Both the position numbers and the translations under genes were made by a program. DNA of 20,000 nucleotides, taken from sequence record DRR723986_1769. One strand, given 5' to 3'. The notes under the pieces are model-generated. The model ran no database searches. It was given only the letters and a program-made list of their open reading frames with translations, and had not been told where the DNA came from. Shown in pieces: positions 3,296-18,905 of this stretch. Every line of letters begins with the position of its first letter. The first letter of the stretch is position 1.

Positions 3296-3313
3296 GATGA
3301 ATTTCCTGCATGC

Positions 3314-3643: not shown

Positions 3644-3662
3644 CTATAAATACTCGCTTTTC

Positions 3663-4466: not shown

Positions 4467-4498
4467 TGCGGTCCTTTTTGCACTTAACTAGATCGGAG

Positions 4499-4574
4499 TA
4501 CTAACGCCTTTAGCAACGGCAAATTGCGGAGCCGAAGGCGTAGTAATTTGTCCGCTTGCCTAAATTTGTTAGGG
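4499..4574 (-). repeat. attC site (76 bp)
   Basis: Minus strand CCCTAAC-AAATT-TAGGCAAG...GTTGCTA-AAGGC-GTTAGTA. GCCCTAAC is complementary to the cassette start GTTAGGGC (5079-5072). Confidence 0.9.
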
Positions 4575-4576
4575 CT

Positions 4577-5059
4577 TTACCCACACCACTTTACCTCAAC
4601 CTGACGCGGCTTCTCAGTATTGACTGGACCAGCAAGGCCTTTGCACTCATTACTGCCACACATATAGCCCAATGCACCGGTTACCTCGCCATACTCTGTG
4701 ATTAAGCCGACTGACTTGCCGTTAACAAAATAGAAGCGATTTTCATCGTGCCCTGTAGGAACCACTAGGGGTATAGGGAAGAATACAATAAATGCCCCAA
4801 CACCTGACCAGCTGTAACCATCATGGTATGTGACAACCTCGCAACTGCCCACTTGAGTTATGGCGTCAGGCTCTCCCCAGGATGAAATTAGAGCCTCTTT
4901 GGTTAGTGCCGTGGCGCTCGCACCATAGTTAAACTTGTTTCGCTCACTGGTGATATTTACGGACGTTTTCTCATCTTCGAAGGTTCCGTAAGTACCCACA
5001 GCCAAACCTACACATCCCTGAAGGAAGAACGTAAGACAGAAAATCGATAATTTCTTCAC
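4577..5059 (-). CDS. Putative lipoprotein (gene cassette)
   Basis: GTG start with an AGGAG RBS. Lipobox in MKKLSIFCLTFFLQGC. TKEALISSWGEPD resembles the SmpA/BamE-like motif. Confidence 0.8.
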   Translation of the reverse strand: MKKLSIFCLTFFLQGCVGLAVGTYGTFEDEKTSVNITSERNKFNYGASATALTKEALISSWGEPDAITQVGSCEVVTYHDGYSWSGVGAFIVFFPIPLVVPTGHDENRFYFVNGKSVGLITEYGEVTGALGYMCGSNECKGLAGPVNTEKPRQVEVKWCG

Positions 5060-5072
5060 GCTCTCTCCTGAG

Positions 5073-5136
5073 CCCTAACGCTGTTAATAATAGGCGCTGC
5101 GCGTAGCGAGCGTCCTTTTTGATTTGATGGTTATGT
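5073..5136 (-). repeat. attC site (64 bp)
   Basis: Minus strand ACATAAC-CATCA-AATCAAAA...TATTATT-AACAGC-GTTAGGG. ACACATAAC is the exact 9-bp complement of GTTATGTGT at 5927-5919. The stop codon lies inside R''. Confidence 0.88.
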
Positions 5137-5913
5137 GTCGATTTCCACACTTTTGTACATAACATGTGATTCGACTGCATTTATTATGGCGACCACATAT
5201 TCTATAGACGCATTCAAATACTCGCTGAAATCGCTGCTACTGACTCTAATAGAATCACCAATTTCGAATTTGAGTCCAGGACAAAGTGAAACAAATCTCT
5301 CATCTGCAATACCAGCTTTATGAACCAAAACATTTCTTATCGCGGCCATTTCATTTAGAGTTTTCCGAATTGCTGAAGGAACTTTAGGCTTTAGTTTGAG
5401 TGGGTTTAGTATGCAATCGAACCTACCAATTCCTGGCTTAAGCGTTGCGCTAAGTTCTCTTTCAAATTGATCAAGGAGAAAGCGCATCCTATCTAGGGAT
5501 TCTAGCTTTTCAAACTCAACCAGCCTAATTTTAAGTTTTTCAAATTCGGGAATATTTCGAGATGTCGGATATCTATATAGCCAACGAACGAGAAAATCCT
5601 TAATTGACGTCTCGAGTGCACCCCACAATAGAATAGTTGTAGACCCTCGGAGCAAAGCGAAATCACTTTCTACTTCGTTCTTGGCTAAAGATTCTATTTC
5701 CGCGGCTCTTTCGATTTCTTCCGCGTCTGATTTCAGCACCTTTCTGAGCTTTTCTAACCCGGTCATATTTTGAACCGAGAATGTTACCAGCTTAGTAAGA
5801 TTCGTTAATTCTTCGACCCGTGAAAGGAATATATCTTCGAACGGGACAACTTCGTACTCCGTGTTGGGTCTCTCTGCTTCTTCTTTCTTATTCATGTTGG
5901 ATATTGGCACCAT
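5131..5913 (-). CDS. Putative HEPN-domain protein (first gene cassette)
   Basis: Helical 260-aa ORF with an Rx4H motif (RNVLVHKAG) near the C-terminus and an upstream conserved-looking helix (LLWGALETSIKD). Alternative start at 5895. Confidence 0.65.
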   Translation of the reverse strand: MVPISNMNKKEEAERPNTEYEVVPFEDIFLSRVEELTNLTKLVTFSVQNMTGLEKLRKVLKSDAEEIERAAEIESLAKNEVESDFALLRGSTTILLWGALETSIKDFLVRWLYRYPTSRNIPEFEKLKIRLVEFEKLESLDRMRFLLDQFERELSATLKPGIGRFDCILNPLKLKPKVPSAIRKTLNEMAAIRNVLVHKAGIADERFVSLCPGLKFEIGDSIRVSSSDFSEYLNASIEYVVAIINAVESHVMYKSVEIDT

Positions 5914-5920
5914 CTAGTAC

Positions 5921-5945
5921 ACATAACATTTGTATATCGCGCACG
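5921..5945 (-). other. attI-like recombination site (start of the cassette array)
   Basis: Minus strand ...GCGCGATATACAAAT-GTTATGT. The core is complementary to the R'' of the first cassette. No attC hairpin or ORF lies upstream. The A-rich ACAAAT before GTT is reminiscent of attI1 (ACAAA-GTT). Confidence 0.65.
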
Positions 5946-6307
5946 CTCGGTTTATTCCAGCGTTAGCTAGTTCAAAAATCTCGTAACGCTCTGATTTTAA
6001 ATATACATGGGCGTTAACGCGGGAATCGCTTATCGGGATAAACGGACATGCGCTTAAATCTTCTTGGTGGGGTCTCATAGATATTGCCCATATTTCCTTA
6101 TGTGGCTTTTTTGCTGCGCGCTAAACGAATGCTTTGAACAGCGCGCTTTCCTTGCTGGAGGGCTCAGCATAAAACGTGATCACTAAAAACACTAGCCACG
6201 ACAGCACGTCAATTAGAATATGCGGCGCTTTCAGAAGGCTGTATTCGCGGGTCTATATAAGAATCGAAGGGAAAATAGCGGCGCCTGGGCTTTAAGGCGG
6301 GGAGGAT

Positions 6308-6331
6308 GCTTGGCGCGAAACAGCGCCAAGC
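6308..6331 (-). terminator. Stem-loop downstream of mmsB (possible terminator)
   Basis: GCTTGGCGC-gaaaca-GCGCCAAGC forms a perfect 9-bp stem 13 bp after the mmsB stop. No clear U-tract. Confidence 0.5.
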
Positions 6332-6344
6332 GGGTAAGCGTGTG

Positions 6345-7232
6345 CTAGCCCTGCATCATTTCAATAATGGCGGAGAAGTCTCGCTGGGCATTGCCGTCTT
6401 TGCCGGCAAAGCTGGCGTAGAGGCTGCGCGCCAATGCACCCATGGGCACAGCGCTTTGGGTTTTCAGGCTGTTTTCCATCGCCAGCCCAAGGTCTTTGAG
6501 CATCAGCTGGGCCATAAAGCCGGGCTGGTAGTCGTTGCTGGCTGGGGTGGCCGGCATAACGCCGGGTACCGGGTTGTAGTTTTGCAGTGACCAGTTATCG
6601 CCAGAGCTGTTCTTCATAATCTCTGACAATATGCTGGCATCCAGGCCGTTATTTAAGCCCAGCTGCAGTGCTTCGGCGGTGCCGACCATATGCACGGCCA
6701 GCAGCATGTTGTTGCACATTTTGGCGATTTGGCCAGCGCCGTGGTCACCCGCGTGGAAGATTTTTTTACCCATCCCCGCCAGGATTTTTTCTGCGCGGGC
6801 AAAGCCCGCCTCGCTGCCGCCGCACATAAAGGCGAGTGTGCCCGCCTGCGCGGCTTTTACGCCACCGGATACCGGCGCGTCTAACATATCCAGCCCTGCG
6901 GCCTCGGCCGCCGCGCCAACTTCGCGGGCAGTTTCGGCGTCGATGGTGCTGCAGTCGAGGATGAGCGTGCCTTTTTGCGCCTTGGCAATCAGGCCTGCCT
7001 CGCCAAGGTACAAACCGGCCACGTGTTTGCCAGCGGGGAGCATACTAAGAATCACTTCGGCGCCATCCATGGCCGCTTCAGCAGTGCTGGCACACTGTGC
7101 GCCCTGCTCGGCTAGCGCTTGCATGGCGGGCTGAGACAGGTCAAAAACGGTCAGGCTGTGGCCTGCCTTGAGTAGATTGGCCGCCATTGGGCCACCCATA
7201 TTTCCCAAGCCGATAAATGCAATGCTGCTCAT
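6345..7232 (-). CDS. mmsB: 3-hydroxyisobutyrate dehydrogenase
   Basis: IAFIGLGNMGGPMAANL Rossmann motif, DAPVSGG, GAGQIAKMCNNMLL and YNPVPGVM...PASNDYQPGF, plus operon context. Confidence 0.95.
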   Translation of the reverse strand: MSSIAFIGLGNMGGPMAANLLKAGHSLTVFDLSQPAMQALAEQGAQCASTAEAAMDGAEVILSMLPAGKHVAGLYLGEAGLIAKAQKGTLILDCSTIDAETAREVGAAAEAAGLDMLDAPVSGGVKAAQAGTLAFMCGGSEAGFARAEKILAGMGKKIFHAGDHGAGQIAKMCNNMLLAVHMVGTAEALQLGLNNGLDASILSEIMKNSSGDNWSLQNYNPVPGVMPATPASNDYQPGFMAQLMLKDLGLAMENSLKTQSAVPMGALARSLYASFAGKDGNAQRDFSAIIEMMQG

Positions 7233-7275
7233 GGTGTTCTCCTTATTGCGGCCCCTGGAAGGCGCGGCGGTATGG

Positions 7276-8391
7276 TTATAAATCGTGCAGTGGATGTTCT
7301 GACCAAGGGGCTTCGAAGTAAGCGCCTACTTCGGCGCTGTCTATCGCTTCGTAGCTGCAGTGGCGCCACTGGGGGTTTTTATCTTTGTCGATTAACAAGG
7401 CACGCACACCCTCGGCGAAGTCGCTGTTACGCACCACATTGGTGGACAGCACCAGCTCAGCGCGAAATACCTCGCGCAGGCTCAGGCCGTCGGCGCGGCG
7501 CAATTGCTCCAGGATTAGGCGTGCGCTCAACGGCGAACCGGCAGACAAAGTTGCCGCCGCTTTTTGCAGCCAGGGGTTGTCGCTGGATAGCTCGGTGATG
7601 GCCTTGATGGCGGCTATATCATCGCCATCGCAGAGCTGATTAATTATTGGCGCCGCAGGCTCGACGTTGGCCTCGGGAAGCGCCGCTTGTGAGGCTTCTA
7701 TATGGCTGGCCATCAGGCTGTACAGGCGCTCGTGATTGTCGCTGACATCGTCGGACCACAGCTCGCTGGCCATCGCTGCCAACACGTCGTCGCGGCGGCT
7801 GTTTTCAATAAAGCTCTCGGCCAAACCGAGGTACAGGGCGTCGCGGCCATTGAAAGACGCGCCGGTTAGCGCCAGGAAGCGCCCACAATAGCCGGGCATG
7901 CGATTAAGGAAATAACTGCCGCCCACGTCGGGATAGAGGCCGATGGTAATTTCCGGCATCGCCAGACGGGATTTTTCGGTGACAACGCGATAACTGCCCG
8001 CCGCGAAGATACCCAAGCCACCGCCCATAACAATGCCGTGCCCCCACACCACAACGGGTTTGGCGAACTGGTGCAGCGCGTAGTCGAGGCGATATTCCTG
8101 CTCGAAGAAGCGCTCGGCGTATTCGCAGGGGCCGCCCGGTGTTTCGGTTGCGGAGCGATACAGAGCCTGCACGTCGCCACCTGCACAGAAGGCTTTTTCA
8201 CCGGCAGCGGTAATAAACAAGCAGGCGATATCGCGACGGTCTCGCCACTCGGCCAGCTGCGTTAGCATGGCCTCGACCATGCCTAGGTTAAGGGAGTTCA
8301 GCGTTTTTTCTACATTGAGGGTGACAATGCCCAGCTTCTGACCGCTGGCGGTGTCGCGCTCTTCAAATAGTACGTCCTGGCTTGTGCTCAT
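7276..8391 (-). CDS. Enoyl-CoA hydratase/isomerase family protein, probable 3-hydroxyisobutyryl-CoA hydrolase
   Basis: AFCAGGDV, GIVMGGGLG, AMPEITIGLYPDVGGS and DFAEGVRALLIDKD. Start placed at the ATG at 8391, which overlaps the upstream stop (TAATG). Confidence 0.92.
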   Translation of the reverse strand: MSTSQDVLFEERDTASGQKLGIVTLNVEKTLNSLNLGMVEAMLTQLAEWRDRRDIACLFITAAGEKAFCAGGDVQALYRSATETPGGPCEYAERFFEQEYRLDYALHQFAKPVVVWGHGIVMGGGLGIFAAGSYRVVTEKSRLAMPEITIGLYPDVGGSYFLNRMPGYCGRFLALTGASFNGRDALYLGLAESFIENSRRDDVLAAMASELWSDDVSDNHERLYSLMASHIEASQAALPEANVEPAAPIINQLCDGDDIAAIKAITELSSDNPWLQKAAATLSAGSPLSARLILEQLRRADGLSLREVFRAELVLSTNVVRNSDFAEGVRALLIDKDKNPQWRHCSYEAIDSAEVGAYFEAPWSEHPLHDL

Positions 8392-9179
8392 TAGGCGTTT
8401 TTCCACTCCGGTTGCCGTTTTTCCAAGAAGGCATTCACGCCTTCTTTTTGGTCGACGGTATCAAACAGTTGCACAAAACGCTCGCGCTCCAGAATCAGCC
8501 CTTTTGGCATGACGGCATCGCGCGCTTCATGGATTAACTGTTTGCAGAAGCTGACGGCCACTGGGCTTTGCTGGGCAACAGCGCTTGCCATATTCAGCGC
8601 CGCCTGCAACGACTCGCCTCGGGGCACTAGCTCTTCAACCAAGCCGATGCGATGCGCCGTTTCGGCATTCACTCGCTCGCCACACAGAATCATGCGTTTG
8701 GCCCAGCCCGCACCCACCAGCGCGGTAAGGCGCTGAGTGCCACCCGCGCAGGGCAACAGGCCAACCTTGGCTTCGGGCAGTGCCATTTGCGCCTGCTCTT
8801 CGGCAATACGGATATCGCAAGCCAGCGCACATTCCAAACCACCGCCCATCGCAAAGCCATTAATGGCTGCAATGCTCACGCCGCGAAAATCGGCTAAGGC
8901 TTCAAACGCCTGACCAAACTTCAGGCCGATATCTTGCGCCACGGCTTTGTCGCCGCTGGCAAACATTTTCAGGTCGGCCCCGGCGGAGAAGAATTTTTCG
9001 CCGCTGCCGGTGATCACCAAGGCGTAGATATTTTTGTCGGCGTTCAGCGCGGCGATCAGCGTTTTCAGGCCACTCAGAGATTCAGCGTCCCAGGTGTTGG
9101 CGGCGGGGTTATTGATGGTTACCACGGCTGTGTGGCCCTGCACGTCAAGCTGTAATTTTTCAGTTGGACTCATGCTCAT
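8391..9179 (-). CDS. Enoyl-CoA hydratase
   Basis: FFSAGADL, AMGGGLECALACDIRIA and LPEAKVGLLPCAGGTQRL. ATGA overlap with the upstream gene. Confidence 0.95.
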   Translation of the reverse strand: MSMSPTEKLQLDVQGHTAVVTINNPAANTWDAESLSGLKTLIAALNADKNIYALVITGSGEKFFSAGADLKMFASGDKAVAQDIGLKFGQAFEALADFRGVSIAAINGFAMGGGLECALACDIRIAEEQAQMALPEAKVGLLPCAGGTQRLTALVGAGWAKRMILCGERVNAETAHRIGLVEELVPRGESLQAALNMASAVAQQSPVAVSFCKQLIHEARDAVMPKGLILERERFVQLFDTVDQKEGVNAFLEKRQPEWKNA

Positions 9180-10336
9180 TTAATCACCTCCAGTGCGCCT
9201 TCCATTAAGATTCGGCGGGCGATAATCACCCGCATAATTTCGTTGGTACCCTCCAGAATTTGATGCACGCGGCTGTCGCGCAGGTGCCGCTCCAAGGGGT
9301 ACTCACGTATATAGCCATAGCCGCCGTGCAGCTGCAGCGCGGTATTACACACGTCAAAGCCCACGTCGGTGGCAAAGCGCTTGGCCATGGCGCAGTAGCT
9401 GCTGGCCTCTGGGTGGCCGGTGTCGAGTTTAAACGCCGCCAGCCTGACCATTTGTCGCGCGGCAACAAGCTGTGTGGCCATATCGGCCAGGGTAAATTGG
9501 GTGTTTTGAAAATCGGCTATGGCCTGGCCAAATTGCTCACGTTCTTTCACGTAGGCGGTTGCCGTTTCCAGTGCGGCTTGCGCGGTGCCAATAGAGCAGG
9601 TGGCGATATTAATGCGGCCGCCGTCCAGGCCTTGCATTGCAATGCGAAAGCCCTGCCCCTCGTCGCCGAGGCGGTTGGCAGCGGGCACCCGCACATTGTC
9701 GAAGGTAACCGTGGCGGTCGGCTGACTGTTCCAGCCCATTTTTTCTTCCGGCTTACCGTAGCTGATGCCTTCACTATCGGCGGGAATAGCGAAGGCGCTA
9801 ATGCCTTTGGGGCCAGGCTCTCCGGTGCGCAGCATGGCAACCAACACGTCGGTGGCGCCAGCGCCAGAGATGAACATTTTGCTGCCATTCACAATGTAGT
9901 GCTCACCGTCGCGGCGAGCGGTGCTTCGCAGGTTGCCCGCATCGGAGCCGGCACCGGGCTCGGTAAGGCAGTACGAGGCCAGCGCCTCGCCAGTCACCAA
10001 AGCTGGGCACAGCGCTTCAACCAACTCAGGCTGGCCGTAGTGGCCGATCATGCTGGTGGCCATATTATGGATGGTTAAAAACGCCGCCGTAGAGGTGCAG
10101 CCGCGGGCCAGCTCTTCAACGATCAGGCTGGTATCCAAACGGCTCATGCCCAAGCCCCCTGCAGATTCCGGGGTATACATGCCCATGAACCCCAGCTCTC
10201 CGGCTTGACGCAGTGCGTCTTTAGGGAAGATGTGTTCGGCGTCCCACTTTGCGGCATTGGGCATGAACACGCCCTCGGCAAACTGGCGCGCGCTCAGGAC
10301 ATAGGCCTGCTGGTCGTCGTTTAATTCAAAATCCAT
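9176..10336 (-). CDS. Acyl-CoA dehydrogenase, isobutyryl-CoA dehydrogenase-like
   Basis: SYCLTEPGAGSDA, GSKMFISG, KMGWNSQPT, GLDGGRINIA, LQLHGGYGY and RVHQILEGTNEIMR. Confidence 0.93.
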   Translation of the reverse strand: MDFELNDDQQAYVLSARQFAEGVFMPNAAKWDAEHIFPKDALRQAGELGFMGMYTPESAGGLGMSRLDTSLIVEELARGCTSTAAFLTIHNMATSMIGHYGQPELVEALCPALVTGEALASYCLTEPGAGSDAGNLRSTARRDGEHYIVNGSKMFISGAGATDVLVAMLRTGEPGPKGISAFAIPADSEGISYGKPEEKMGWNSQPTATVTFDNVRVPAANRLGDEGQGFRIAMQGLDGGRINIATCSIGTAQAALETATAYVKEREQFGQAIADFQNTQFTLADMATQLVAARQMVRLAAFKLDTGHPEASSYCAMAKRFATDVGFDVCNTALQLHGGYGYIREYPLERHLRDSRVHQILEGTNEIMRVIIARRILMEGALEVIK

Positions 10337-10366
10337 AACTGCGTTACCTTAACCACAACAACTCAC

Positions 10367-11806
10367 TTATGCACCAGGCGCCAAACCCCCGGCATGCTCG
10401 GCAGCGATCGCTGAGGCAAATAGCTGCTCGTCGGCGGGAAGCTGTTTGGTTTGAGCCAACGGCCGCGACACCCAGGTAATGTTTACCAAGTCTTGCCAGC
10501 TAATATTATTGTTGGTGCCATTGCCGCCCCAACTGCCACAACCAAGCGAAAAGGTCTGGCGCATACCATTCCAAACATTACCACTATTCGACGGCGCTTG
10601 CGGCTGATTTACCATCACCCGCGAGGTAAACGTTTGCTCGGCATAGCGCTGGATATTGTCATCGCTGCGCGAGTAAATGCCGCAGCTATGCCCCTGCCCC
10701 TGATACGCCTGAATGGCATTGGTGGTGGCAATGGCCTCGTCCAGGTCGGCCACTCGATAGAAGGCCATTACCACCGACATTTTTTCCCCTGAGAAAGGAT
10801 GCTCCGGGCCCGCGCCGGTTTCCGGCACGATGAAAAACTGCTTGCCCTCAGGCAGATCGATACCTGCCATTGCTGCCAATACCGATGCCGGCTGGGCGAC
10901 AATTTTGCTGTTGATGTGGCCATCTTCCCAGATCAACGCCTGTAAGCGCTGCTTTTCTTCCCTGTTGCAAATATAGCCGCCCTCGGCCTGAAGCTTGTCG
11001 AGCAGGCTGTCGGCGATAGCCTCGAACGCCACCACCGAGTTATCGGAGGAACACGACGCTGCCAGATCCAGGGTTTTTGAAATACGAATTTTCTCCGCCG
11101 CCATCTCCAGGTCGGCGGTGTCATCAACCACAATCACCGCATTGCCCGCACCAACGCCCAGTGCAGGCGTGCCGCTGGCATAGGCCGACTTCACCATTGC
11201 CGCGCCACCGGTGGCCAGAATGCGGTCGCACTGCTTCATTAATTCGTTGGTGCTTTCCAGTGAAGGCTGCTCAATCGCGATGACCAAATCCTCGGGAGCG
11301 CCCAGCGCGGCGATGGCGGCACGCATGCGATCGCAGATCATTTTATTGGTGAGCTTGGAGCGCGGGTGCGGCGCAATAATGATGGCATTGCGCCCTTTTA
11401 CGGCAAAAATAGACTTAATCACCGGCGTCGCTTCGGGGTTAGTGCAGGGTGCCAAGGCGCCGATCACGCCGACGGGCTTGGCGATTTTAACAATATTGCG
11501 CTCGCGGTCCTCTTCGATCACACCCACGGATTTGTCGTGCAAAATATCGAACAGGGTTGCCCGCGTTTTCTTGGCGATTTTTAAATACTTGCCCTCGTAG
11601 TTACCCAACTGGGTTTCCTCTACGGTAAAGCGCGCCACGTCTTCGGCAACACCGGGTTTGGCAACCGCCCACACCATGGCGGTGATCAATTCATCAACCT
11701 GCTGCTGGCTGTAGTGCGCAATTTGCTGCTGAGCAGCGCGCGACCGCGCCATCAAACCTGCAATATAGTCGGCGGCGTTGGCCTCTGCCTGTTGGGTATT
11801 TTCCAT
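10367..11806 (-). CDS. CoA-acylating aldehyde dehydrogenase of the AdhE-N/SauS type
   Basis: KPVGVIGALAPCTNPEATP, NAIIIAPHPR, ATGG..MVKSAY, GVGAGN, SKTLDLAASCSSDNS, SGEKMS, GHSCGI and SLGCGSWGGN. Start placed at the ATG at 11806 (MENTQ). Confidence 0.9.
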   Translation of the reverse strand: MENTQQAEANAADYIAGLMARSRAAQQQIAHYSQQQVDELITAMVWAVAKPGVAEDVARFTVEETQLGNYEGKYLKIAKKTRATLFDILHDKSVGVIEEDRERNIVKIAKPVGVIGALAPCTNPEATPVIKSIFAVKGRNAIIIAPHPRSKLTNKMICDRMRAAIAALGAPEDLVIAIEQPSLESTNELMKQCDRILATGGAAMVKSAYASGTPALGVGAGNAVIVVDDTADLEMAAEKIRISKTLDLAASCSSDNSVVAFEAIADSLLDKLQAEGGYICNREEKQRLQALIWEDGHINSKIVAQPASVLAAMAGIDLPEGKQFFIVPETGAGPEHPFSGEKMSVVMAFYRVADLDEAIATTNAIQAYQGQGHSCGIYSRSDDNIQRYAEQTFTSRVMVNQPQAPSNSGNVWNGMRQTFSLGCGSWGGNGTNNNISWQDLVNITWVSRPLAQTKQLPADEQLFASAIAAEHAGGLAPGA

Positions 11807-11899
11807 GGTGTTTACCTGCTGATCTCTGTGCCCCAGCAACCGTGCATAGGACGAAATTGTTAACAGGTCGCTATAAAACCACAGCCAAGCTGGCTTCTG

Positions 11900-11934
11900 G
11901 ATTGACTATATTGGGCTATTGATGGACTATATTG
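11900..11934. promoter_or_regulatory. Tandem direct repeat, candidate AraC-family operator
   Basis: GATTGACTATATTG (11900-11913) and GATGGACTATATTG (11921-11934) are 13/14 identical with a 21-bp period, in the divergent intergenic region. Confidence 0.65.
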
Positions 11935-11969
11935 CTACGCCAAAGAACCACTCCGGCTAGGCAATAATT

Positions 11970-12860
11970 ATGAGCATCACCTCTGACTGGCCCCTTCCCC
12001 CCAATGGCGTGCGCTTCCTCACACCCCAGCGCGTCGCCCAACAATTGGCCGCCCACCCACTGAGCGAGGCCCTGTATCCACTGGCCATGGGCTACTACCC
12101 TTATGCCCACGGCCACCGTATGGAGCGGGACCAGCACGACAGTTTTCTGCTGATCTACTGCATTGATGGCAGTGGTGTTCTGCGCAGTGGCGAGCGCCAG
12201 TTCAGCATTGCCAGCGGGGATTTAATTTTGTTGCCCAAGGGCATGGCGCATCAGTACGCTGCGGACGACGACACGCCGTGGACCATTTACTGGCTACACT
12301 TTGACGGCCGATTGGCCGACGACTTTTATCGCCACAGTCAGCTACACACTCCGCATATCCATATTGGCGTTCAACCCCGCGTGGTACGCATATTTGACGG
12401 CCTGTCAGAGTTGCGACGCAGCGCCTATCAACTCGCCGAGTTTATTCAGGGCTGCCACCAGTTGCAGGCCCTGTTGAGCTACATCGCCCTGCTGGTTCGC
12501 CAGCAACCCTCACGTGGCGGCAAGCGCCTGGATTGGGAACATATTCGTGCGGTAATGCAGGAGCATATTCACGGCCAGCTGAACTTAGAGACACTCGCAG
12601 CCAGCGCCAATATGTCGAAGTATCACTTTATTAAAAAGTTTAAGGCCTGGAGCGGGCAGTCGCCGATTCAGTACTTTATTCACATGAAAATACAGCGGGC
12701 TTGTTACCTGCTGGACAGCACGGCAATGTCGGTGAAGGAAGTGGCGGCCACGCTGGGCTATGACGATATGTATTATTTTTCACGGATTTTTAAAAAAGTG
12801 CTGGGCATTGCGCCCAGCGACTACCGACGCCATCGAGGCGCTATTCCACCACGCCCTTAA
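11970..12860 (+). CDS. AraC-family transcriptional regulator, MmsR-like
   Basis: N-terminal cupin sensor (PWTIYWLHFDG) and C-terminal double HTH (LGYDDMYYFSRIFKK). Divergent from the mmsB-containing operon. Confidence 0.92.
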   Translation: MSITSDWPLPPNGVRFLTPQRVAQQLAAHPLSEALYPLAMGYYPYAHGHRMERDQHDSFLLIYCIDGSGVLRSGERQFSIASGDLILLPKGMAHQYAADDDTPWTIYWLHFDGRLADDFYRHSQLHTPHIHIGVQPRVVRIFDGLSELRRSAYQLAEFIQGCHQLQALLSYIALLVRQQPSRGGKRLDWEHIRAVMQEHIHGQLNLETLAASANMSKYHFIKKFKAWSGQSPIQYFIHMKIQRACYLLDSTAMSVKEVAATLGYDDMYYFSRIFKKVLGIAPSDYRRHRGAIPPRP

Positions 12861-13639
12861 ACCAGCAGCTCCCCGGCCAATACGGTGCGGGCACTGCCCG
12901 ATAACACGACCCGCTCGCTGTGTATGGCAATACCGACGTTGCCACCGCGCGCGGAAATTTGCCGCGCCTGGAACGTATCGCGACCGAGCTTTTGCTGCCA
13001 GTAATGCGCCAACGCGCAGTGCGCCGAACCTGTTACTGGATCCTCTTCAATACCGACAGCCGGTGCGAAGAAGCGCGATACGAAGTCATGCTGTTCGCCG
13101 CGAGCGGTAACGATTAAGCCCCTTACATTCAGGGCGGAGATAGCTGCGCTGTCAGCAGCAAAATTCTCCACCGCGCGCTGATCCGTCAGCTCCAGCAACA
13201 GGTCTTCCCCTGCCGTTGCCGCCGCTACGGCGCCAGCGGTGAGGCTGGCCGGCCAGCGGTCATAGCTACAGCTTTGCGTCACACACAGGGGAAAGTCCAT
13301 CGACATACCATCGCCACGACGCTGCACGCGCAACTCGCCGCTCAGAGTGTCAAAGCGCAAGGTTTCGGCGCCGATCTGACACTGCTCCCACAGGGCGTGC
13401 GCACAAGCCAGCGTTGCATGACCGCAGAGGGACACCTCCGCTTTCGGGGTAAACCAGCGCAGACTCCAGCATTCCCCTTGGCTGTCCAGTGGCTGAAGAA
13501 ATGCGGTTTCAGAGAGGTTAAATTCCGCAGCGATCTTTTGCAGACTTTCGTCATCGAGCTGACGGTTTTGTAAAACGACCGCGGCCGGGTTACCGGAGAA
13601 CGGCTGATCACTGAAGGCATCGACAATAAAACTTTTCAT
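12857..13639 (-). CDS. PhzF-family isomerase/epimerase
   Basis: VDAFSDQPFSGNPAAV, NLSETAF, LRWFTP..EV.LCGHATLA and EDPVTGSAHC. Start placed at the ATG at 13639. Confidence 0.93.
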   Translation of the reverse strand: MKSFIVDAFSDQPFSGNPAAVVLQNRQLDDESLQKIAAEFNLSETAFLQPLDSQGECWSLRWFTPKAEVSLCGHATLACAHALWEQCQIGAETLRFDTLSGELRVQRRGDGMSMDFPLCVTQSCSYDRWPASLTAGAVAAATAGEDLLLELTDQRAVENFAADSAAISALNVRGLIVTARGEQHDFVSRFFAPAVGIEEDPVTGSAHCALAHYWQQKLGRDTFQARQISARGGNVGIAIHSERVVLSGSARTVLAGELLV

Positions 13640-13661
13640 GTGTTGTTTTCCTTGTAGCGCA

Positions 13662-14365
13662 TTAGCCGTAAGCGCCATTGAGTATGTCTTCACAGAGTTG
13701 TGGCAACACTACACTGGCAGGGCCCTGGCGATGCTCGGCAAATTCGCTGGCGGGGCTCGCCGGCTCGATATTAACCTCAATACTGTGCGCACCGGCACGG
13801 CGCGCCTCATGAACGAAGCCAGCGGCGGGATACACCTGCCCGGAGGTGCCTATGGCAATAAATAACTGGCACTGAGACAACGCCTGCTGAATATCGTCCA
13901 TATACAGCGGCATCTCGCCAAACCATACCACGTGGGGACGCAGTGTCTGCGGCAAATTACAGCATTCACAATGCTGTGATGGCAGCAGATCCTGCCGGAT
14001 CTCAAAACACTGGCCGCTATTGGCGCAGCGCATCTTCAGCAGCTCACCGTGCATATGCAGCAGCTTATTCGAACCGGCCCGCTCGTGAAGGTTGTCGATA
14101 TTTTGGGTAACCAGTAGCAGGTCACCGGCAAAGTGTTTCTCCAACTCCGCCAGCGCAATATGAGCGGGATTGGGCGCAATATCAGCAGACAACAGCTGCT
14201 GGCGGCGACGGTTGTAAAAGTCATGGACTCGCTCGGGGTTGCCACCTCTTCAATGCGGTGCTCTTCCCAGAGGCCATCGGCCGCGCGAAAGGTCTGTATG
14301 CCCGACTCGGCGGAAATACCCGCGCCCGTTAACACAACAATGCGTGACAGGGTTTGGCTACTCAT
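13662..14365 (-). pseudogene. cobB: NAD-dependent protein deacylase (sirtuin), frameshifted
   Basis: The N-terminal part [34 protein letters not shown] (ATG 14365) is in one frame. [17 protein letters not shown]...[12 protein letters not shown]...HMHGEL...[10 protein letters not shown]...[13 protein letters not shown] is in another. The junction is at 14232-14242, and the total of 704 nt is not a multiple of 3. Confidence 0.88.
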
Positions 14366-14861
14366 ATACGACGCCCTCCAAAGGCTTCTCCATAAAGCGC
14401 GCGCTACCGTACTCCGGCCGCAGTTGGTAGTCGACGAAGCCAAAGCGTTGATAGCTGTGCCGGGCAGCGGTATTGCCCTCTAATACCTCCAGCGTCAGCT
14501 TGCAGTAACCGCGCCTCTGCGCCAGTGTTTGAATATGCGCCAGCATGGCCGAACACACGCCGCGCTGGCGCCAGGCGGGGTGCACGATAATGTCGTGGAT
14601 ATTTAACAGCGGCTTGGCTTTGAAGGTGGAAAACCCCACAAAGGCGTTGATCAGGCCAATGGCTTGCCCGCTGTCCCACGCAATGACACTGATCGCCCCC
14701 GGCTGCTCGGCCAGCGCATCACACAAACCCGACACCACTTCTGGAGCCAGCGCTTCTGCACCACCCATTGGGTCTTTGGCGTAGCATTCCATCAGCGACG
14801 CGATCGCCTCACAATCACTCTCACAGGCATAGTCCGCCAGGCGACACTGCCAGTCTTTCAT
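14358..14861 (-). CDS. GNAT-family N-acetyltransferase
   Basis: [45 protein letters not shown]. Start placed at the ATG at 14861 with a GGAG RBS. The stop overlaps the cobB start. Confidence 0.9.
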
Positions 14862-14994
14862 TTGTTTCTCCCAACTTGCCAAACGCGCTTACGGCCCGCG
14901 GCGCACCACTTACCTGGCGCGTCATATTCACACTTCTAGCGGCCGCGCGCGTTACGTATACTCTGTGTCATAAACACCAATAAAGAGAACCGTT

Positions 14995-16761
14995 ATGTCC
15001 CAGAAACTCTTGCCTGTACTCGGCATCAGCGCCGCGCTAATGCTTAGCGGCTGCGGTAGCAGTTCATCCTCGTCAACGACCAATAACGGCTCGCCAAGTG
15101 GGAACGGTGGTGTTGCTGAGGCAAAAACCTTCAGCGACCAGGCCATTACCGCCGATGACGGCGAAACCATCGCCTTCACCGCCTACACACCGGAGAACCC
15201 GAGCGGCAAAGCCGTACCGCTGATTCTGCACGGTCACGGCTTTGGTCTTTCCCGCGCAAAAAATCTGGAAAACCCCAATCCACTGGAAGCGTTTACAACC
15301 AAAGATGTTTCCGGTGATGTGGCTCGCCAAGCGTGGCTGGACAAGGGCTACTATGTGATCAGCTTCGACCAGCGCGGCTTCGGTGACAGCACCGGGAAAA
15401 TTAGTGTGATGGACCCCGATGTGGATTGCAAAAGCATTTCCTCCATCATCGACTGGGCCGAAATCAATCTACCGAATTTAAAGCGCGACAATGGCGACCC
15501 GCTGATTGGTTCGGTGGGACTCTCTTACGGCGGCGGCTTCCAGACCGTGTGCTCGAGCGTCGACAAACGCTTCGACGCTATTGTACCGCTGGCAACCTGG
15601 AGCCACCTGCCCTATAGCCTGTACGCCGACAGCAGCCCCAAAACCAGCTGGCTGGACGTGCTGGGCATCGCCTCGATGGGCAATCTGGAAGACTACCTGT
15701 GGCCGGCGTTTCTGCAGGCCAACTCCACCGGCAACATCGACCAGTCGGTCATCGATAAACTCGCCGGGCACGGCCCGCTGTCCTACTGCCTGGGTGAGCG
15801 CAGCGACGGCGGCACCTTATCCAAAGCAGACGCACTGTTTATTCAGGGCGCTAACGATATCTTATTCAATGCCAACGAGGCTGTTGAGAATTACGAATGC
15901 TGGACCGGCCAAGGCCGGGACACCCACTTGTTTGTGCAGCGCGAGGGACATATTTTACCGCTGCTGCAAGATGCCGGTGAAATGATCCTGTTTGGCACCG
16001 ACGAGACCCTGTACTGCGACGACCAGCAGTTCGACACCACCACCATCGCGCTGGGTTTCCTCGCCAATAAATTGATGGGCGAACCGCAACAAGACCTGCC
16101 CGACGTGTGCTTCAGCCACGCGGCGTCTCAGCAGGGTCGCAGTTTCAGCAGCGTGGTTCGCGGTGGCACCACAACCCTGCTGCCGGCCAGCCAGGTAATT
16201 CCGGGCGGTGCCGCCTACGTCATCAACCTCTTACAGGCCTTGCCACTGGGCACCTTGCTAGAGGTGTTAGCGGGCCTACCCGGCGAAACCGCTGGCGTAT
16301 TGCAGGCCGTATTGGGCGGCTTGCAAGACCCGGCCTCCATCGCCGATTCCCTGGATGACATCCTGAATCTGATTCCCGCTGAAGTGATCAATAAAACCCT
16401 CGCGGCGGGTCAGTTTATTCCGCTAATTACAGTAGACAACGACGGCTTACTGGCCGGCATTCCCACCGCCAACCTGCTATTGGAAGGCGGCAACGGTGAC
16501 GGCAATCTGCTGTATGTTGGCCTGGGTAAACGCCGGGGCGGCGACGCGGCGCTGGTTAACGACCAGGTGCGGCCGGTGCGCGGTATCGGCGCCAAGCAAT
16601 TGGAACTGGTGGGTGTGAACGAAGACTTACAGGTGGGCGATGAGCTGGGACTGATGGTCTATGGCATTCATCCCTACTACTTGTATCCTGCGGGCCTGGT
16701 GCAACCGCCTCTGCCGGTTAGCGTGAATGGCACGGTACAGCTCCCCATTCACACTCAGTAA
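14995..16761 (+). CDS. Lipoprotein alpha/beta hydrolase, CocE/NonD (peptidase S15) family
   Basis: Lipobox LSGC followed by a Ser-rich linker, ILHGHGFG, FDQRGFGDSTG, nucleophile elbow GLSYGGG and IQGANDILF. Confidence 0.88.
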   Translation: MSQKLLPVLGISAALMLSGCGSSSSSSTTNNGSPSGNGGVAEAKTFSDQAITADDGETIAFTAYTPENPSGKAVPLILHGHGFGLSRAKNLENPNPLEAFTTKDVSGDVARQAWLDKGYYVISFDQRGFGDSTGKISVMDPDVDCKSISSIIDWAEINLPNLKRDNGDPLIGSVGLSYGGGFQTVCSSVDKRFDAIVPLATWSHLPYSLYADSSPKTSWLDVLGIASMGNLEDYLWPAFLQANSTGNIDQSVIDKLAGHGPLSYCLGERSDGGTLSKADALFIQGANDILFNANEAVENYECWTGQGRDTHLFVQREGHILPLLQDAGEMILFGTDETLYCDDQQFDTTTIALGFLANKLMGEPQQDLPDVCFSHAASQQGRSFSSVVRGGTTTLLPASQVIPGGAAYVINLLQALPLGTLLEVLAGLPGETAGVLQAVLGGLQDPASIADSLDDILNLIPAEVINKTLAAGQFIPLITVDNDGLLAGIPTANLLLEGGNGDGNLLYVGLGKRRGGDAALVNDQVRPVRGIGAKQLELVGVNEDLQVGDELGLMVYGIHPYYLYPAGLVQPPLPVSVNGTVQLPIHTQ

Positions 16762-16767
16762 GGATTC

Positions 16768-16792
16768 AGCCGGGGGCATTGCGCCTCCGGCT
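16768..16792. terminator. Stem-loop between convergent genes (probable terminator)
   Basis: AGCCGGGGGC-attgc-GCCTCCGGCT followed by TGTTGTT, located between the stops at 16761 (+) and 16809 (-). Confidence 0.65.
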
Positions 16793-16808
16793 TGTTGTTA
16801 AGCGGCGT

Positions 16809-17000
16809 TTAGCCAATACCCACAAAGGTTGCCAGCCAAAGGCTCAGCACGGTCATCGAGGTGACCGACGCAGCCAGAATCAGCAGCAATTTAAACGGCT
16901 TAAAGGGCTTTCGCTCGACGTCGTTATAACCCTTCTTCAGAAATTCATCGACTTTGAGCTGATCTTCGGGATACAGCTTATTGTGTTCGTTTTCCATCAA
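16809..17000 (-). CDS. DUF3094-like small membrane protein
   Basis: KLYPEDQLKVDEFLKKGYNDVERKPFKP followed by a single C-terminal TM helix. Confidence 0.8.
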   Translation of the reverse strand: MMENEHNKLYPEDQLKVDEFLKKGYNDVERKPFKPFKLLLILAASVTSMTVLSLWLATFVGIG

Positions 17001-17029
17001 TTACCGCCCCAATATAAATACATCGCCAT

Positions 17030-17066
17030 AAAAAAAGGCGGCCCCATTATCACAGGATGCCGCCTT
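17030..17066 (-). terminator. Rho-independent terminator
   Basis: AAGGCGGC...GCCGCCTT stem (17035-17042 / 17059-17066). The A-run at 17030-17036 gives a U-tract on the minus strand, downstream of the stop at 17118. Confidence 0.7.
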
Positions 17067-17117
17067 CAACTCCAGCCGTCGCCGTGCAGGGCACGGCAGG
17101 CTCTGGGATATCCGCGT

Positions 17118-18905
17118 TTACGCGAACGCTTCTTCCGCAATATCCATCAACGTGCTGCTGCCGTTGCGGATTGATGCGCTCAGTGCGCTGGCCTGTGGCA
17201 ACAGGCGCTGAACGAAGAAGCGAGCGGTTTGCAGCTTGGCTTTGTCGAACTCTTCACCCTGCTGGCTTTCACCGCTGAGCACAGTGCGACACATCATTGC
17301 CCACATGTAGCTGAACAGTGTGAAGCCCATTACGTGCAGGTATTCGTTCGCGGCTGCGCCAATCGCGTTGGCATCGCTGCCCGCTTGCTCAAGTACAAAC
17401 TTGGTCAGCGACTCGAGGTTGTCGACCGCGTCGTTCAGCGGGTTCAGGAATTCATCCATGCCCGCAACCGATGCAGAGTCGGCGCTGAAGGCGCGCATTT
17501 CAGCGATCAGTGCCTGAAGGTTCTTCGCGCCATTGGCGGCAACCTTACGCCCCATCAAATCCATCGCCTGGATGCCGTTGGTGCCTTCGTAGATCTGCGC
17601 AATGCGCACGTCACGAACCAGCTGCTCCATGCCCCACTCACGCACGTAACCGTGGCCGCCGTAACACTGTTGACCCAGTACGGTGCCCTCGAAGCCCTTA
17701 TCGGTCAGGAAGGCTTTCGCAACAGGCGTCAGCAATTCAACCATGCCCGAGGCCAGCGCCTTGGCATCGCCGTCGCCAAATTTAGACACGTCCAACTGCT
17801 TGCCCACATACACGGCAAATGCGCGACCCGCTTCAACCAGTGCTTTCTGGGTGAGCAGCATGCGGCGAACATCGGGGTGTACAACGATTGGGTCGGCAGG
17901 GCCGGCTTGGTTAACAGGGCCAGTCGGTGCACGGCTTTGCAGACGCTCACGCGCGTATTCACAAGACCACTGGTAAGCGGTTTGCGCAGCACTCAGTCCC
18001 TGAATACCGACTGACAAACGCTCGTAGTTCATCATGGTGAACATGCCTTGCAGACCGCGGTTGATTTCACCAACGAGGTAGCCTTCGGCACCGTCGAAGT
18101 TCATCACACAGGTTGCCGAGGCATTGATACCCATTTTGTGTTCGATGCTGCCGCAGTTCACGCCGTTGCGCTCGCCGAGGCTGCCGTCGTCATTCACTTT
18201 TACCTTGGGTACCAAGAACAGTGAAATACCTTTAGAACCCGCTGGAGCATCGGGCAGTTTTGCCAGCACCAGGTGGATAACGTTTTCGGTCAGGTCGTGG
18301 TCACCACCGGTGATGAAGATCTTAGTACCGGTAACCTTGTAGGTGCCATCGGCTTGTGGCTCGGCCTTGGTACGGATCATACCCAGATCAGTACCCGCGT
18401 GGCTCTCTGTCAAACACATGGCGCCGGCCCACTGACCGGAGTACATGTTAGGCAGGTATTTTTCCTTCAGCTCATCGGAGGCGTGGTTGTCGATGGCCAG
18501 TGCCGCGCCTGACGTCAGGGTCAGGTAGAGGCCCATCGCGATGTTGGAGGAGTACAGCATTTCCTCGAACAACAGTACCAGCATCTTGGGCATGTTCTGG
18601 CCGCCGTAATTCGGCTCACCCGCCAGACCACCCCAGCCGCCTTCGGCCAGTTGTTTAAATGCTTCTGGATACCCTTTGGGTGTGGTGACAACACCGTCGT
18701 CCCACTTCACGCCCTCTTCATGGCCAGACTGGCTCAAAGGGGCGATCAGGTTTTCATTGATCTTGGCACTTTCTTCAAGGATCGCATCCGCCAGCTCGCG
18801 GTTAACTTCCTCGGTTCCCGGCATGTTTTGCCAAAGCTGCTCGGCCTTAAATACCTCGTGCAGGACAAACTGCATATCACGCAGCGGCGCTTTATATTCG
18901 GGCAT
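17118..18905 (-). CDS. Acyl-CoA dehydrogenase (long ~600-aa type with C-terminal domain)
   Basis: MPEYKAPLRDMQF, MCLTESHAGTDLG, GTKIFITGG, EHKMGINASATC, GGHGYVREWG and QIYEGTNGIQAMDL. Confidence 0.95.
   Translation of the reverse strand: MPEYKAPLRDMQFVLHEVFKAEQLWQNMPGTEEVNRELADAILEESAKINENLIAPLSQSGHEEGVKWDDGVVTTPKGYPEAFKQLAEGGWGGLAGEPNYGGQNMPKMLVLLFEEMLYSSNIAMGLYLTLTSGAALAIDNHASDELKEKYLPNMYSGQWAGAMCLTESHAGTDLGMIRTKAEPQADGTYKVTGTKIFITGGDHDLTENVIHLVLAKLPDAPAGSKGISLFLVPKVKVNDDGSLGERNGVNCGSIEHKMGINASATCVMNFDGAEGYLVGEINRGLQGMFTMMNYERLSVGIQGLSAAQTAYQWSCEYARERLQSRAPTGPVNQAGPADPIVVHPDVRRMLLTQKALVEAGRAFAVYVGKQLDVSKFGDGDAKALASGMVELLTPVAKAFLTDKGFEGTVLGQQCYGGHGYVREWGMEQLVRDVRIAQIYEGTNGIQAMDLMGRKVAANGAKNLQALIAEMRAFSADSASVAGMDEFLNPLNDAVDNLESLTKFVLEQAGSDANAIGAAANEYLHVMGFTLFSYMWAMMCRTVLSGESQQGEEFDKAKLQTARFFVQRLLPQASALSASIRNGSSTLMDIAEEAFA

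Follow-up and report, generated by a model that had tools for sequence, protein, structure and literature searches.

The gene at positions 10367-11806 (minus strand) of the window, i.e. the whole 20,000-nucleotide stretch of DNA analyzed here, codes for a 479-residue CoA-acylating aldehyde dehydrogenase belonging to what we term clade X. We regard it as reasonably probable that this protein is a non-decarboxylating (methyl)malonate-semialdehyde dehydrogenase, which has displaced MmsA in the valine operon. While the family of the enzyme, its operon position, the displacement itself, the phyletic co-occurrences and the residue conservation are directly observed, its substrate and, especially, the preservation of the carboxyl group are inferred, and there are no biochemical data. 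We also lean, with slightly less assurance, towards the view that a catabolic CoA-acylating non-decarboxylating dehydrogenase, acting in a valine pathway without propionyl-CoA in abundant marine heterotrophs, represents a previously unrecognized activity.

Affinities of the clade X dehydrogenase

The source organism of the window is a marine Spongiibacter. The nearest genome (G001), which shares 20% of 31-mers with the window and encodes a clade X protein 98% identical to that under study, was used as a stand-in for the window's own genome. The minus-strand frame stays open for 490 aa between a TTG at 11839 and the stop at 10367, and initiation at the ATG at 11806 yields a protein of 479 aa. 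This length fits that of the homologues (468-482 aa), and hence the coordinates 10367-11806 are correct and define a real ORF.

The original prediction had assigned this gene, based on its motifs, to the AdhE-N/SauS type of aldehyde dehydrogenases rather than to MmsA, and this assignment is upheld by the matches of the protein to AdhE-N and SucD and the lack of a match to the MmsA model. The motifs PCTNP (at residue 120), APHPR (145), GVGAGN (217), CSSDNS (252) and GCGSWG (422) are all present in the 479-aa protein. The characteristic MmsA motifs ITPFNFP and GQRCMA, which are seen respectively at positions 147 and 279 of the true MmsA of G001, are missing from it. The further motif described as SKT.D...CSS is also present, in the form SKTLDLAASCSS, but the aspartate and the cysteine are separated by four residues and not three. 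The unusual CSSD in place of the more typical CxSE is a feature of the entire clade, with an aspartate at the Cys+3 position in 39/39 clade X sequences. A glutamate occupies this position in 20/20 SauS-model sequences and in 5/6 AdhE-type or other sequences.

Searches against NCBIfam recovered the SauS model NF047625 as the best match of the clade X protein (498.8 bits, against a cut-off of 600), along with AdhE-N (422.8 bits) and EutH_ACDH (355.4 bits); the MmsA model TIGR01722 (cut-off 448.5) is missing from the 22 NCBIfam families matched with E<=0.001. In the PDB the best match was SucD from Clostridium kluyveri (CkSucD; 8cei, 319.6 bits, E 3.5e-94, residues 27-459), with further matches to AdhE (303.5 bits) and the acetylating ACDH (287 bits). 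These matches all span residues ~20-459, pointing to similarity with the structurally solved members over the full length. Judged by these profile and sequence matches, the protein belongs to the Cys-dependent CoA-acylating aldehyde dehydrogenases, i.e. the group comprising AdhE-N, EutE, PduP, SucD and SauS.

The relationship to SauS was investigated by means of a quick IQ-TREE phylogeny (LG+G4), which included 39 clade X sequences and 20 SauS sequences scoring over the model's cut-off, and in which SucD was not placed. Each of these two sets lies on one side of a branch with an SH-aLRT support of 99, with SauS forming the sister clade of X. The 20 true SauS members score 625-792 bits with the SauS model and the orthologue of X from G001 scores 493.4 bits; a protein from G437 with 528 bits was left out of both the alignment and the tree. 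The X copies drawn from two distinct genomic contexts, namely the valine operon and an operon with AptA and malonyl-CoA decarboxylase (MCD; see below), form one clade with one invariant signature. Clade X is, as far as sequence comparisons can establish, an uncharacterized and tightly conserved clade of the above group. SauS is reportedly the acylating sulfoacetaldehyde dehydrogenase of Cupriavidus necator and Bilophila wadsworthia, and its substrate is, by our inference, isosteric with malonate semialdehyde, a sulfonate replacing the carboxylate. It has in common with X the Lys80/Ser253 pair, the CSS motif and the GCGSWG motif; however, the genes of clade X occur beside valine or beta-alanine genes, and not sulfoacetate genes.

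Displacement of MmsA at the head of the valine operon

The neighbors of the clade X gene in the window comprise genes of the valine pathway, AraC and PhzF. Beginning 30 nt past its stop, on the same strand, is a short/branched-chain acyl-CoA dehydrogenase (ACAD; 9176-10336, with Acyl-CoA_dh N, M and C domains), which by context is the isobutyryl-CoA dehydrogenase and is kept beside either X or MmsA in the compared loci. Its stop overlaps by 4 nt with the gene for an enoyl-CoA hydratase (ECH; 8391-9179, minus strand; ECH_1 197 bits, NF006566 439 bits with a cut-off of 286), by context the methacrylyl-CoA hydratase. These are accompanied, again on the minus strand, by genes for the 3-hydroxyisobutyryl-CoA hydrolase (HIBCH; 7276-8406; ECH_2 373.9 bits, NF004127 346 bits with a cut-off of 274) and the 3-hydroxyisobutyrate dehydrogenase MmsB (6345-7232; TIGR01692 406.2 bits with a cut-off of 291.6). 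Directly after mmsB lies a terminator-like hairpin (6282-6299, minus strand), which possibly marks the end of the operon; it is only a pattern match from a consensus scan, which found 13 such sites in the region against 7.9 expected. On the other side is a divergent MmsR-like regulator of the AraC family (11970-12860, plus strand), combining an AraC_binding domain with HTH_AraC/HTH_18. Domain and NCBIfam matches hence confirm the operon as it had been predicted, and homologues of its regulator (41-74% identity) are found divergently upstream of X-type as well as MmsA-type operons.

Textbook catabolism of valine, thymine and beta-alanine ends with the decarboxylating MmsA. The proposal that X sits in the mmsA slot is supported by comparisons of gene order, with relatives carrying AraC/MmsA-ACAD-ECH-HIBCH-MmsB where this lineage has AraC/X-ACAD-ECH-HIBCH-MmsB. 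The version with X is shared by the window and G001 and recurs in 11 of 17 further clade X loci (nine of them with a divergent AraC), and that with MmsA is found in a genome of the sister genus (G055) and in G094, G306, G200 and G274. Swaps between MmsA and X are even observed within genera (G306 and G200 versus G282; G274 versus G032): G282 with X and G306 with MmsA belong to the same genus and have even a flanking convergent MCD gene in common. The linkage of X to the valine operon is conserved in at least nine families. Across many marine Gammaproteobacteria, as well as some Alphaproteobacteria, MmsA has given way to clade X as the leading gene of the distal valine operon.

In a 401-genome order sample X was detected in 57 genomes, and MmsA is present in only 11 of these as against 224 of the 344 others; the distributions of the two enzymes are largely complementary. 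The large searches for X and MmsA scored only 3-4 candidates per genome, and the absence of MmsA was fully verified, with every candidate scored, in only five genomes: in these five complete X genomes no MmsA was found, the best TIGR01722 score being 300.4 bits against the cut-off of 448.5. The closest kin of the window (G001, G140 and G310) possess a bona fide solitary MmsA away from the operon, with that of G001 scoring 753.6 bits. Hence, the non-orthologous replacement of mmsA that was originally predicted holds for the operon, but in this lineage it probably does not extend to the genome as a whole. Given that 11 of the 57 X genomes, including the closest kin of the window, keep MmsA, X need not be the sole enzyme for this step here. 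In comparison with the MmsA/BauC/IolA family (TIGR01722, ALDH6), X shares the slot and the regulator family, but the two enzymes come from unrelated branches within the ALDH superfamily; further, MmsA yields propionyl-CoA or acetyl-CoA by a decarboxylation that X is predicted not to carry out.

Predicted active site and reaction

Six residues, namely Cys252, Lys80, Ser253, Arg82, Asp255 and Arg416, are unchanged across all 39 clade X sequences. His373 and Ser374 are likewise invariant in 39/39 sequences, and along with Cys252 align to His364, Thr365 and Cys242 of CkSucD. According to PMC10249356, Cys242 of CkSucD is catalytic and operates with a His364/Thr365 proton relay, Lys70 and Ser243 coordinate the distal carboxylate, and PduP has Leu/Val at the latter two pocket positions. 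Lys80 and Ser253 of X align to this Lys70/Ser243 pair and are invariant both in X (39/39) and in SauS (20/20), whereas AdhE-type sequences have Ala/Ala. The pocket of X is hence predicted from the alignment to contain the Lys/Ser pair of enzymes with anionic substrates, and not the Ala/Ala of the acetaldehyde enzymes. Residues of the pocket loops distinguish X from SauS (R82 versus L/F/M, D255 versus E, Q403 versus H and R416 versus P/N) and are invariant inside each clade.

SucD of C. kluyveri (8CEI/8CEJ/8CEK; PMC10249356) has in common with X the catalytic cysteine, the His-Thr/Ser dyad and the Lys/Ser carboxylate pair. SucD is CoA-acylating on an acid semialdehyde whose carboxyl group is kept, which is the same chemistry as proposed for X. 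However, the substrate of X would be one carbon shorter (a beta-carboxy aldehyde, either C3 or branched C4), X has Asp rather than Glu at Cys+3, and the loop around Thr395 of SucD differs, being an invariant QAPSNS...W..R in X. Moreover, X would run oxidatively in an aerobic valine operon; no 4-hydroxybutyrate genes, which form the fermentation context of SucD, occur among the annotated window neighbors.

The proposed reaction would convert (methyl)malonate semialdehyde, CoA and NAD(P)+ to (methyl)malonyl-CoA and NAD(P)H. Cys252 would form a thiohemiacetal, from which hydride transfer would generate a thioacyl-enzyme, with the acyl group then passing to CoA; the beta-carboxylate would be held by Lys80 and Ser253, and perhaps also by Arg82 and Arg416, rather than being lost. 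In the valine operon the resulting methylmalonyl-CoA would be converted by methylmalonyl-CoA mutase to succinyl-CoA, bypassing propionyl-CoA along with its ATP-dependent carboxylase. Applying the CIP priority rules, we infer that (R)-methylmalonyl-CoA, the substrate of the mutase, would arise from (S)-methylmalonate semialdehyde. On the C3 substrate the proposed reaction is the reverse of that of the malonyl-CoA reductases (EC 1.2.1.75), such as Mcr of Sulfolobus/Metallosphaera and the C-terminal domain of Chloroflexus MCR, which convert malonyl-CoA and NADPH to malonate semialdehyde. These enzymes belong to families unrelated to X (the aspartate-semialdehyde dehydrogenase and SDR types), and their role is in anabolic CO2 fixation, not catabolism.

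Genomic context and the fate of the carboxyl group

A second context of clade X is provided by an operon of the form LysR/AptA-X-MCD, which is found in G158, G275 and, with a second copy of X, in G083. AptA is an omega-aminotransferase/beta-alanine aminotransferase (NF052567 707 and 693 bits, cut-off 500), and the adjacent MCD is recovered by PF05292 (348 and 354 bits), with ~30 nt between X and MCD in G083. The AptA-X combination parallels the aminotransferase-plus-ALDH pairing of BauA and BauC for beta-alanine. A dedicated decarboxylase would have no purpose in this operon unless X yielded malonyl-CoA, and the arrangement hence speaks for retention of the carboxyl group by X. It is nevertheless rare (3/57 X genomes from two genera), and neither X nor AptA was found near relatives of this MCD in 12 metagenome loci, four of which are on short contigs.

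Across the 401 genomes methylmalonyl-CoA mutase is present in 57/57 genomes with X, and X in 0/216 genomes without mutase. The 185 mutase-positive genomes include 46 with X only, 11 with both X and MmsA, 75 with MmsA only and 53 with neither; 149 of the mutase-negative genomes have MmsA and 67 neither. Within one family (f17) the mutase occurs in two of 14 genomes and X in the same two. These counts ignore kinship, and X occurs only in lineages most of which possess the mutase in any case; because genomes of shared ancestry are not independent data points, the support is weaker than 57/57 would imply. No prpB scoring over the cut-off was found in G001, which agrees with use of the mutase, although this is a single-genome observation. 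Formation of methylmalonyl-CoA without decarboxylation, one of the two activities originally suggested, is thus favored by the mutase co-occurrence, the conserved SucD carboxylate residues and the AptA-X-MCD operons.

An unlikely but still viable alternative is that X does exactly the job of MmsA, decarboxylating its substrate to propionyl-CoA, which would then pass through propionyl-CoA carboxylase, epimerase and mutase. The occupation of MmsA's operon slot and the complementary distribution would fit such a role, and a beta-carboxy thioacyl-enzyme could lose CO2, which is the course taken in MmsA. A PCC-like (TIGR01117-like) carboxyltransferase is encoded no more than ~5 kb away from the mutase in all five of G001, G355, G015, G351 and G055, and the propionyl-CoA route is hence not excluded; as to the product of X, this proximity is uninformative. 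However, on this reading the MCD that immediately follows X in three genomes would be redundant. It is also opposed by the lack of X in all mutase-less genomes, so many of which have MmsA, and by the characterized relatives, given that SucD and, from what is generally known of its chemistry, SauS retain the anionic group.

The other activity originally suggested would place X at the top of the pathway, converting isobutyraldehyde, derived from isobutanol or via a keto-acid decarboxylase, to isobutyryl-CoA and bypassing BCKDH, with another dehydrogenase taking methylmalonate semialdehyde. This appears rather improbable, even though X heads the operon, the separate MmsA in G001 could complete the pathway, and no BCKDH-type E1alpha was found in G001, G355 and G015, where PF00676 matches only a SucA-sized frame. 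The MmsA-type G055 likewise lacks E1alpha, and the X-type G080 has it; loss of E1alpha is hence not linked to X, and the idea of a BCKDH bypass drawn from it was rejected. Further, the 46 X genomes without MmsA would be left with no enzyme for methylmalonate semialdehyde, the AptA-X-MCD context is unrelated to isobutyraldehyde, and the pocket has the SucD-like Lys/Ser rather than the Ala/Ala seen in AdhE or the Leu/Val given for PduP in the SucD study. That X is instead a true SauS lying near valine genes incidentally, as its best NCBIfam match and the name given to homologues by several sources might suggest, is very hard to sustain in view of its score below the curated 600-bit cut-off, its separation from the 20 passing SauS in the tree (SH-aLRT 99 for each clade), its distinct pocket-loop residues, its conserved valine-operon linkage, and the absence of the expected CoA ligase, transporter and Xsc/Pta among its neighbors, for which only the window was considered.

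Implications for valine and beta-alanine catabolism

No description of a non-decarboxylating enzyme or route was found in the literature searched, with subscription journals and supplements lying outside the search; in PMC6572756 the formation of malonyl-CoA from malonate semialdehyde is raised only as speculation. If the proposed non-decarboxylating function of X is correct, its widespread replacement of MmsA would constitute an undescribed variant of a core pathway, as far as the literature searched is concerned. Spongiibacteraceae, Porticoccaceae, Halieaceae and some Sphingomonadales would degrade valine without propionyl-CoA, with (R)-methylmalonyl-CoA going straight to the B12-dependent mutase, so that one ATP would be spared and neither the carboxylase nor the epimerase would be needed; AptA and MCD would extend this propionyl-CoA-free scheme to beta-alanine. 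The choice between MmsA and X would be tied to the use by a lineage of the mutase or the methylcitrate route, and the use of branched-chain amino acids in marine bacteria to B12-dependent metabolism. An oxygen-tolerant AdhE-type enzyme interconverting malonyl-CoA or methylmalonyl-CoA and the semialdehydes would also be of use in engineering 3-hydroxypropionate, 3-hydroxyisobutyrate and synthetic CO2-fixation pathways. Finally, a gap in pathway reconstruction would be closed for the 46/401 sampled genomes with X and without MmsA, and a systematic mis-annotation would be corrected: the homologues are currently labeled either 'sulfoacetaldehyde dehydrogenase', the name used by JGI, or 'succinate-semialdehyde dehydrogenase (acetylating)'.

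The aldehyde dehydrogenase gene and its operon

The gene at 10367-11806 (minus strand), which belongs to an uncharacterized clade of CoA-acylating aldehyde dehydrogenases termed X here, occupies a frame open from a TTG at 11839 to the stop at 10367. Initiation at the ATG at 11806 gives a protein of 479 residues, in keeping with its homologues (468-482 residues), and the boundaries in the original prediction are correct. Every motif named in that prediction was recovered, including SKT.D...CSS, but in this motif four residues, and not three, lie between SKT.D and CSS. The protein matches the Pfam Aldedh profile only weakly (64 bits), and its best NCBIfam models are SauS, the acylating sulfoacetaldehyde dehydrogenase (498.8 bits, curated cut-off 600), the N-terminal half of AdhE (422.8 bits) and the EutH-type acetaldehyde dehydrogenase (355.4 bits). 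The same NCBIfam search gave no match to TIGR01722, the model for MmsA, the decarboxylating methylmalonate-semialdehyde dehydrogenase that usually heads the distal valine operon. An acyl-CoA dehydrogenase (ACAD) gene follows X after 30 nt, and the succeeding genes, with overlapping stops and starts, encode an enoyl-CoA hydratase (ECH; NF006566, 439 bits), a 3-hydroxyisobutyryl-CoA hydrolase (HIBCH; NF004127, 346 bits) and MmsB (TIGR01692, 406 bits). A divergent AraC-family regulator lies upstream of X, and a terminator-like hairpin, identified by pattern match only, follows mmsB. Spongiibacter marinus has the closest named homologue of X (97% identity); the best 120 database matches are all 72-99% identical, come from Spongiibacteraceae, Porticoccaceae, Halieaceae and their allies, and are named either 'aldehyde dehydrogenase family protein' or 'sulfoacetaldehyde dehydrogenase'.

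Phylogenetic position of clade X

In a sample of 401 genomes of the order, X orthologues form a sharply bounded group found in 57. The matches are full-length in 54 of these (65-98% identity, at least 675 bits); in the others X is broken into two pieces at contig ends (G002) or present only as a fragment (G379), and in G188 and G229 the match contains one in-frame stop each. Beyond the 57 genomes the next matches reach at most 45% identity and 406 bits. A maximum-likelihood tree (quick search, LG+G4) was computed from 39 clade X, 20 SauS (over the cut-off) and six AdhE-type or other sequences, with one unpublished genome excluded; several long branches were flagged. Clade X and SauS are each set off by a branch with SH-aLRT support of 99, and SauS is the sister of clade X relative to AdhE. 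The long-branched L088 was placed beside X. X belongs to the group of Cys-dependent acylating aldehyde dehydrogenases, and it also fails the tested criteria for MmsA membership.

Spirochaetales, Victivallaceae and Acidaminobacter have an intermediate clade that shares 44-54% identity with X (Spirochaetales MAG contigs L107 and L109, and L110-L114); it retains the residues equivalent to Lys80 and Ser253 of X and lacks Arg416. In L107 and L109 its gene comes immediately after that of an aminotransferase sharing 27-28% identity with the omega-aminotransferase AptA, and it may be another semialdehyde-capturing variant. In Alphaproteobacteria, clade X members (70-71% identical) are the first genes of valine operons with a different order, X-ACAD-HIBCH-ECH-MmsB (L098 and L103, Parasphingorhabdus and Sphingomonadaceae records), which suggests that X was either transferred between classes or recruited independently.

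Active site

Among relatives with solved structures, SucD of C. kluyveri is the best match to X (8CEI, 319.6 bits). The account of that enzyme gives Cys242 as catalytic, His364 and Thr365 as a proton relay, and Lys70 and Ser243 as holding the distal carboxyl group, with Leu and Val at the latter two positions in PduP (PMC10249356). The aligned residues of the window protein are Cys252, His373/Ser374, Lys80 and Ser253, all invariant in 39 of 39 clade X sequences. The Lys and Ser pair is likewise invariant in all 20 SauS sequences and is Ala/Ala in AdhE-type sequences; in 58 further relatives the two positions co-vary, Lys always occurring with Ser, and Ala with Ala save for two exceptions. This conservation and co-variation of Lys80 and Ser253 points, at the level of sequence, to an anionic substrate for X and not to isobutyraldehyde or acetaldehyde. 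Clade X has invariant residues of its own, namely Arg82, Glu125, Asp255 (Glu in SauS, SucD and AdhE), Gln403, Ser406-Asn407-Ser408, Trp412, Arg416 and Gln417. Several of these align to the loop holding the SucD pocket residue Thr395; no pocket placement is shown for Arg82 or Arg416.

Displacement of MmsA from the valine operon

The operon of the window recurs in G001, the nearest genome available for comparison (X 98% identical). Among 17 further clade X loci, from 16 genomes, 11 have X-ACAD-ECH-HIBCH-MmsB in one direction, nine of them with a divergent AraC gene; X is divergent from the ACAD operon in two, is joined to HIBCH alone in one and is located elsewhere in three. In five genomes without X the same AraC-flanked operon is headed by MmsA. 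One of these (G055) represents the sister genus in the same family, two (G306 and G200) are congeneric with the X-type G282, and another (G274) with the X-type G032; the fifth is G094. Even a flanking convergent malonyl-CoA decarboxylase (MCD) gene is common to G282 and G306, so that one slot accommodates either enzyme. The closest kin of the window (G001, G140, G310 and G233) retain a true MmsA outside the valine operon. That of G001 follows SDR and alpha/beta-hydrolase genes beside a FabR-like regulator, and a two-subunit 2-oxoacid:ferredoxin oxidoreductase of the pyruvate/2-ketoisovalerate family is encoded about 5 kb away (L011 295-3278).

MmsA (TIGR01722, E<=1e-120) was detected in 235 of the 401 genomes and methylmalonyl-CoA mutase (PF01642, E<=1e-100) in 185. 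The mutase-positive genomes comprise 46 with X only, 11 with X and MmsA, 75 with MmsA only and 53 with neither; among the 216 mutase-negative genomes none has X, with or without MmsA, 149 have MmsA only and 67 neither. MmsA is thus present in 11 of 57 X genomes as against 224 of 344 others, and the mutase in all 57; in family f17 the mutase is found in two of 14 genomes, exactly the two with X. The large searches scored just three or four candidates per genome, and five complete X genomes were therefore searched again with every candidate scored; none contained MmsA (best 300.4 bits, cut-off 448.5). Since related genomes are not independent, these counts are given as a pattern without a statistical test; the pattern is repeated within three genera and across five or more families. 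The shared slot and complementary distribution support the original reading of a non-orthologous replacement of mmsA, and X probably takes over methylmalonate semialdehyde as a substrate from MmsA.

A second genomic context

Three X genes, with the complete clade X signature, lie outside valine operons in a unit of AptA, X and MCD genes with a divergent LysR regulator (L054 7828-11995, L061 7877-12169 and L158 7860-12134). That of G083 is a second X copy, and those of G158 and G275 are the sole ones. AptA scores 707 and 693 bits (NF052567, cut-off 500) and MCD 348 and 354 bits (PF05292) in G083 and G158 respectively, and both were recognized by tblastn in G275; the X-MCD gap in G083 is about 30 nt. 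The named records L093 and L150 duplicate the DNA of two of these loci and were left out of the count. In pseudomonads, beta-alanine is degraded by an aminotransferase and BauC, a decarboxylating MmsA homologue. The AptA-X-MCD unit is a candidate for a beta-alanine pathway that would instead proceed through malonate semialdehyde and malonyl-CoA to acetyl-CoA and CO2, and not by the one-step BauC/MmsA reaction. The unit is rare (three of 57 X genomes), and neither X nor AptA was found near related MCD genes at any of 12 metagenome loci. By our reading of the matches MCD occurs somewhere in 24 of the 57, unlinked to X except in these three genomes and in G282, where it flanks the operon.

In a Halioglobus MAG record (L118 5119-6840) a homologue of AptA (74% identity) and a shortened X-like match (59% identity) overlap, without a detected MCD; this may represent the unit in rearranged or decayed form.

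Proposed reaction and alternatives

SucD and SauS are acylating enzymes that leave the anionic group of their acid or sulfonate aldehyde substrate in place; like them, X is predicted to retain the carboxyl group of its substrate while taking over the pathway role of MmsA. In the valine operon the same non-decarboxylating chemistry on a methyl-branched substrate would yield methylmalonyl-CoA, which fits the strict co-occurrence of X with the mutase. We regard this product as the best explanation, with moderate confidence. Conversion of the aldehyde of (S)-methylmalonate semialdehyde to a thioester would, as inferred from the CIP rules, change the descriptor to (R), the form used by the mutase; the route would then need neither the epimerase nor the carboxylase and its ATP, an inference of ours without assay. 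Unrelated malonyl-CoA reductases catalyze the reverse reaction on malonyl-CoA. No AdhE-type (methyl)malonate-semialdehyde dehydrogenase or valine variant of this kind was found described in the literature searched, which excluded subscription journals and supplements.

A decarboxylating, MmsA-like X is unlikely but retains some support, in that a PCC-like carboxyltransferase is encoded near the mutase in five of five genomes checked and propionyl-CoA could still be handled; against it, a separate MCD beside X would have no purpose unless X retained the carboxyl group. It is still less probable that X feeds in isobutyraldehyde as isobutyryl-CoA, as the original prediction also allowed. Spongiibacter-type genomes have no BCKDH-type E1alpha: in whole-genome PF00676 searches of G001, G355, G015 and G055, all with the distal valine operon, matches were confined to one frame of SucA size and a weak one of 650 residues. 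However, G055 is of the MmsA type and the X-type G080 possesses this subunit, so that its absence lends the feeder reading no support, and the Lys80/Ser253 pattern again favors an anionic substrate. That X is a true SauS is barely tenable, as it falls below the cut-off, in a separate clade and in a different context, and so fails each criterion tested.

Other features of the window

The alignment to G001 (96.3% identity over 5916-19998) ends at 5916, just after mmsB. The region 1-5915 has a GC content of 41-48%, as against 55-59% elsewhere, and contains small minus-strand ORFs, most without a Pfam match; it encodes a DUF4272 protein (2-592) and a weak RiboL-PSP HEPN match just below the cut-off (5131-5913, 27.6 bits). 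The region resembles a strain-specific island, possibly one related to defence. A Sir2/CobB-type deacetylase gene (13662-14443, minus strand) is split into ORFs at 14036-14443 and 13662-14192; relative to the intact 241-residue version in G001 it lacks 22 bp near 14241 and has 5 bp inserted near 14435-14439, and it is a pseudogene unless the assembly is in error here. Finally, a tandem pair of long acyl-CoA dehydrogenases of about 595 residues, with an Acyl-CoA_dh_C extension, is encoded at 17118-18905 and 19009-19998 (both minus strand, the latter running off the window) and is also kept in G001.
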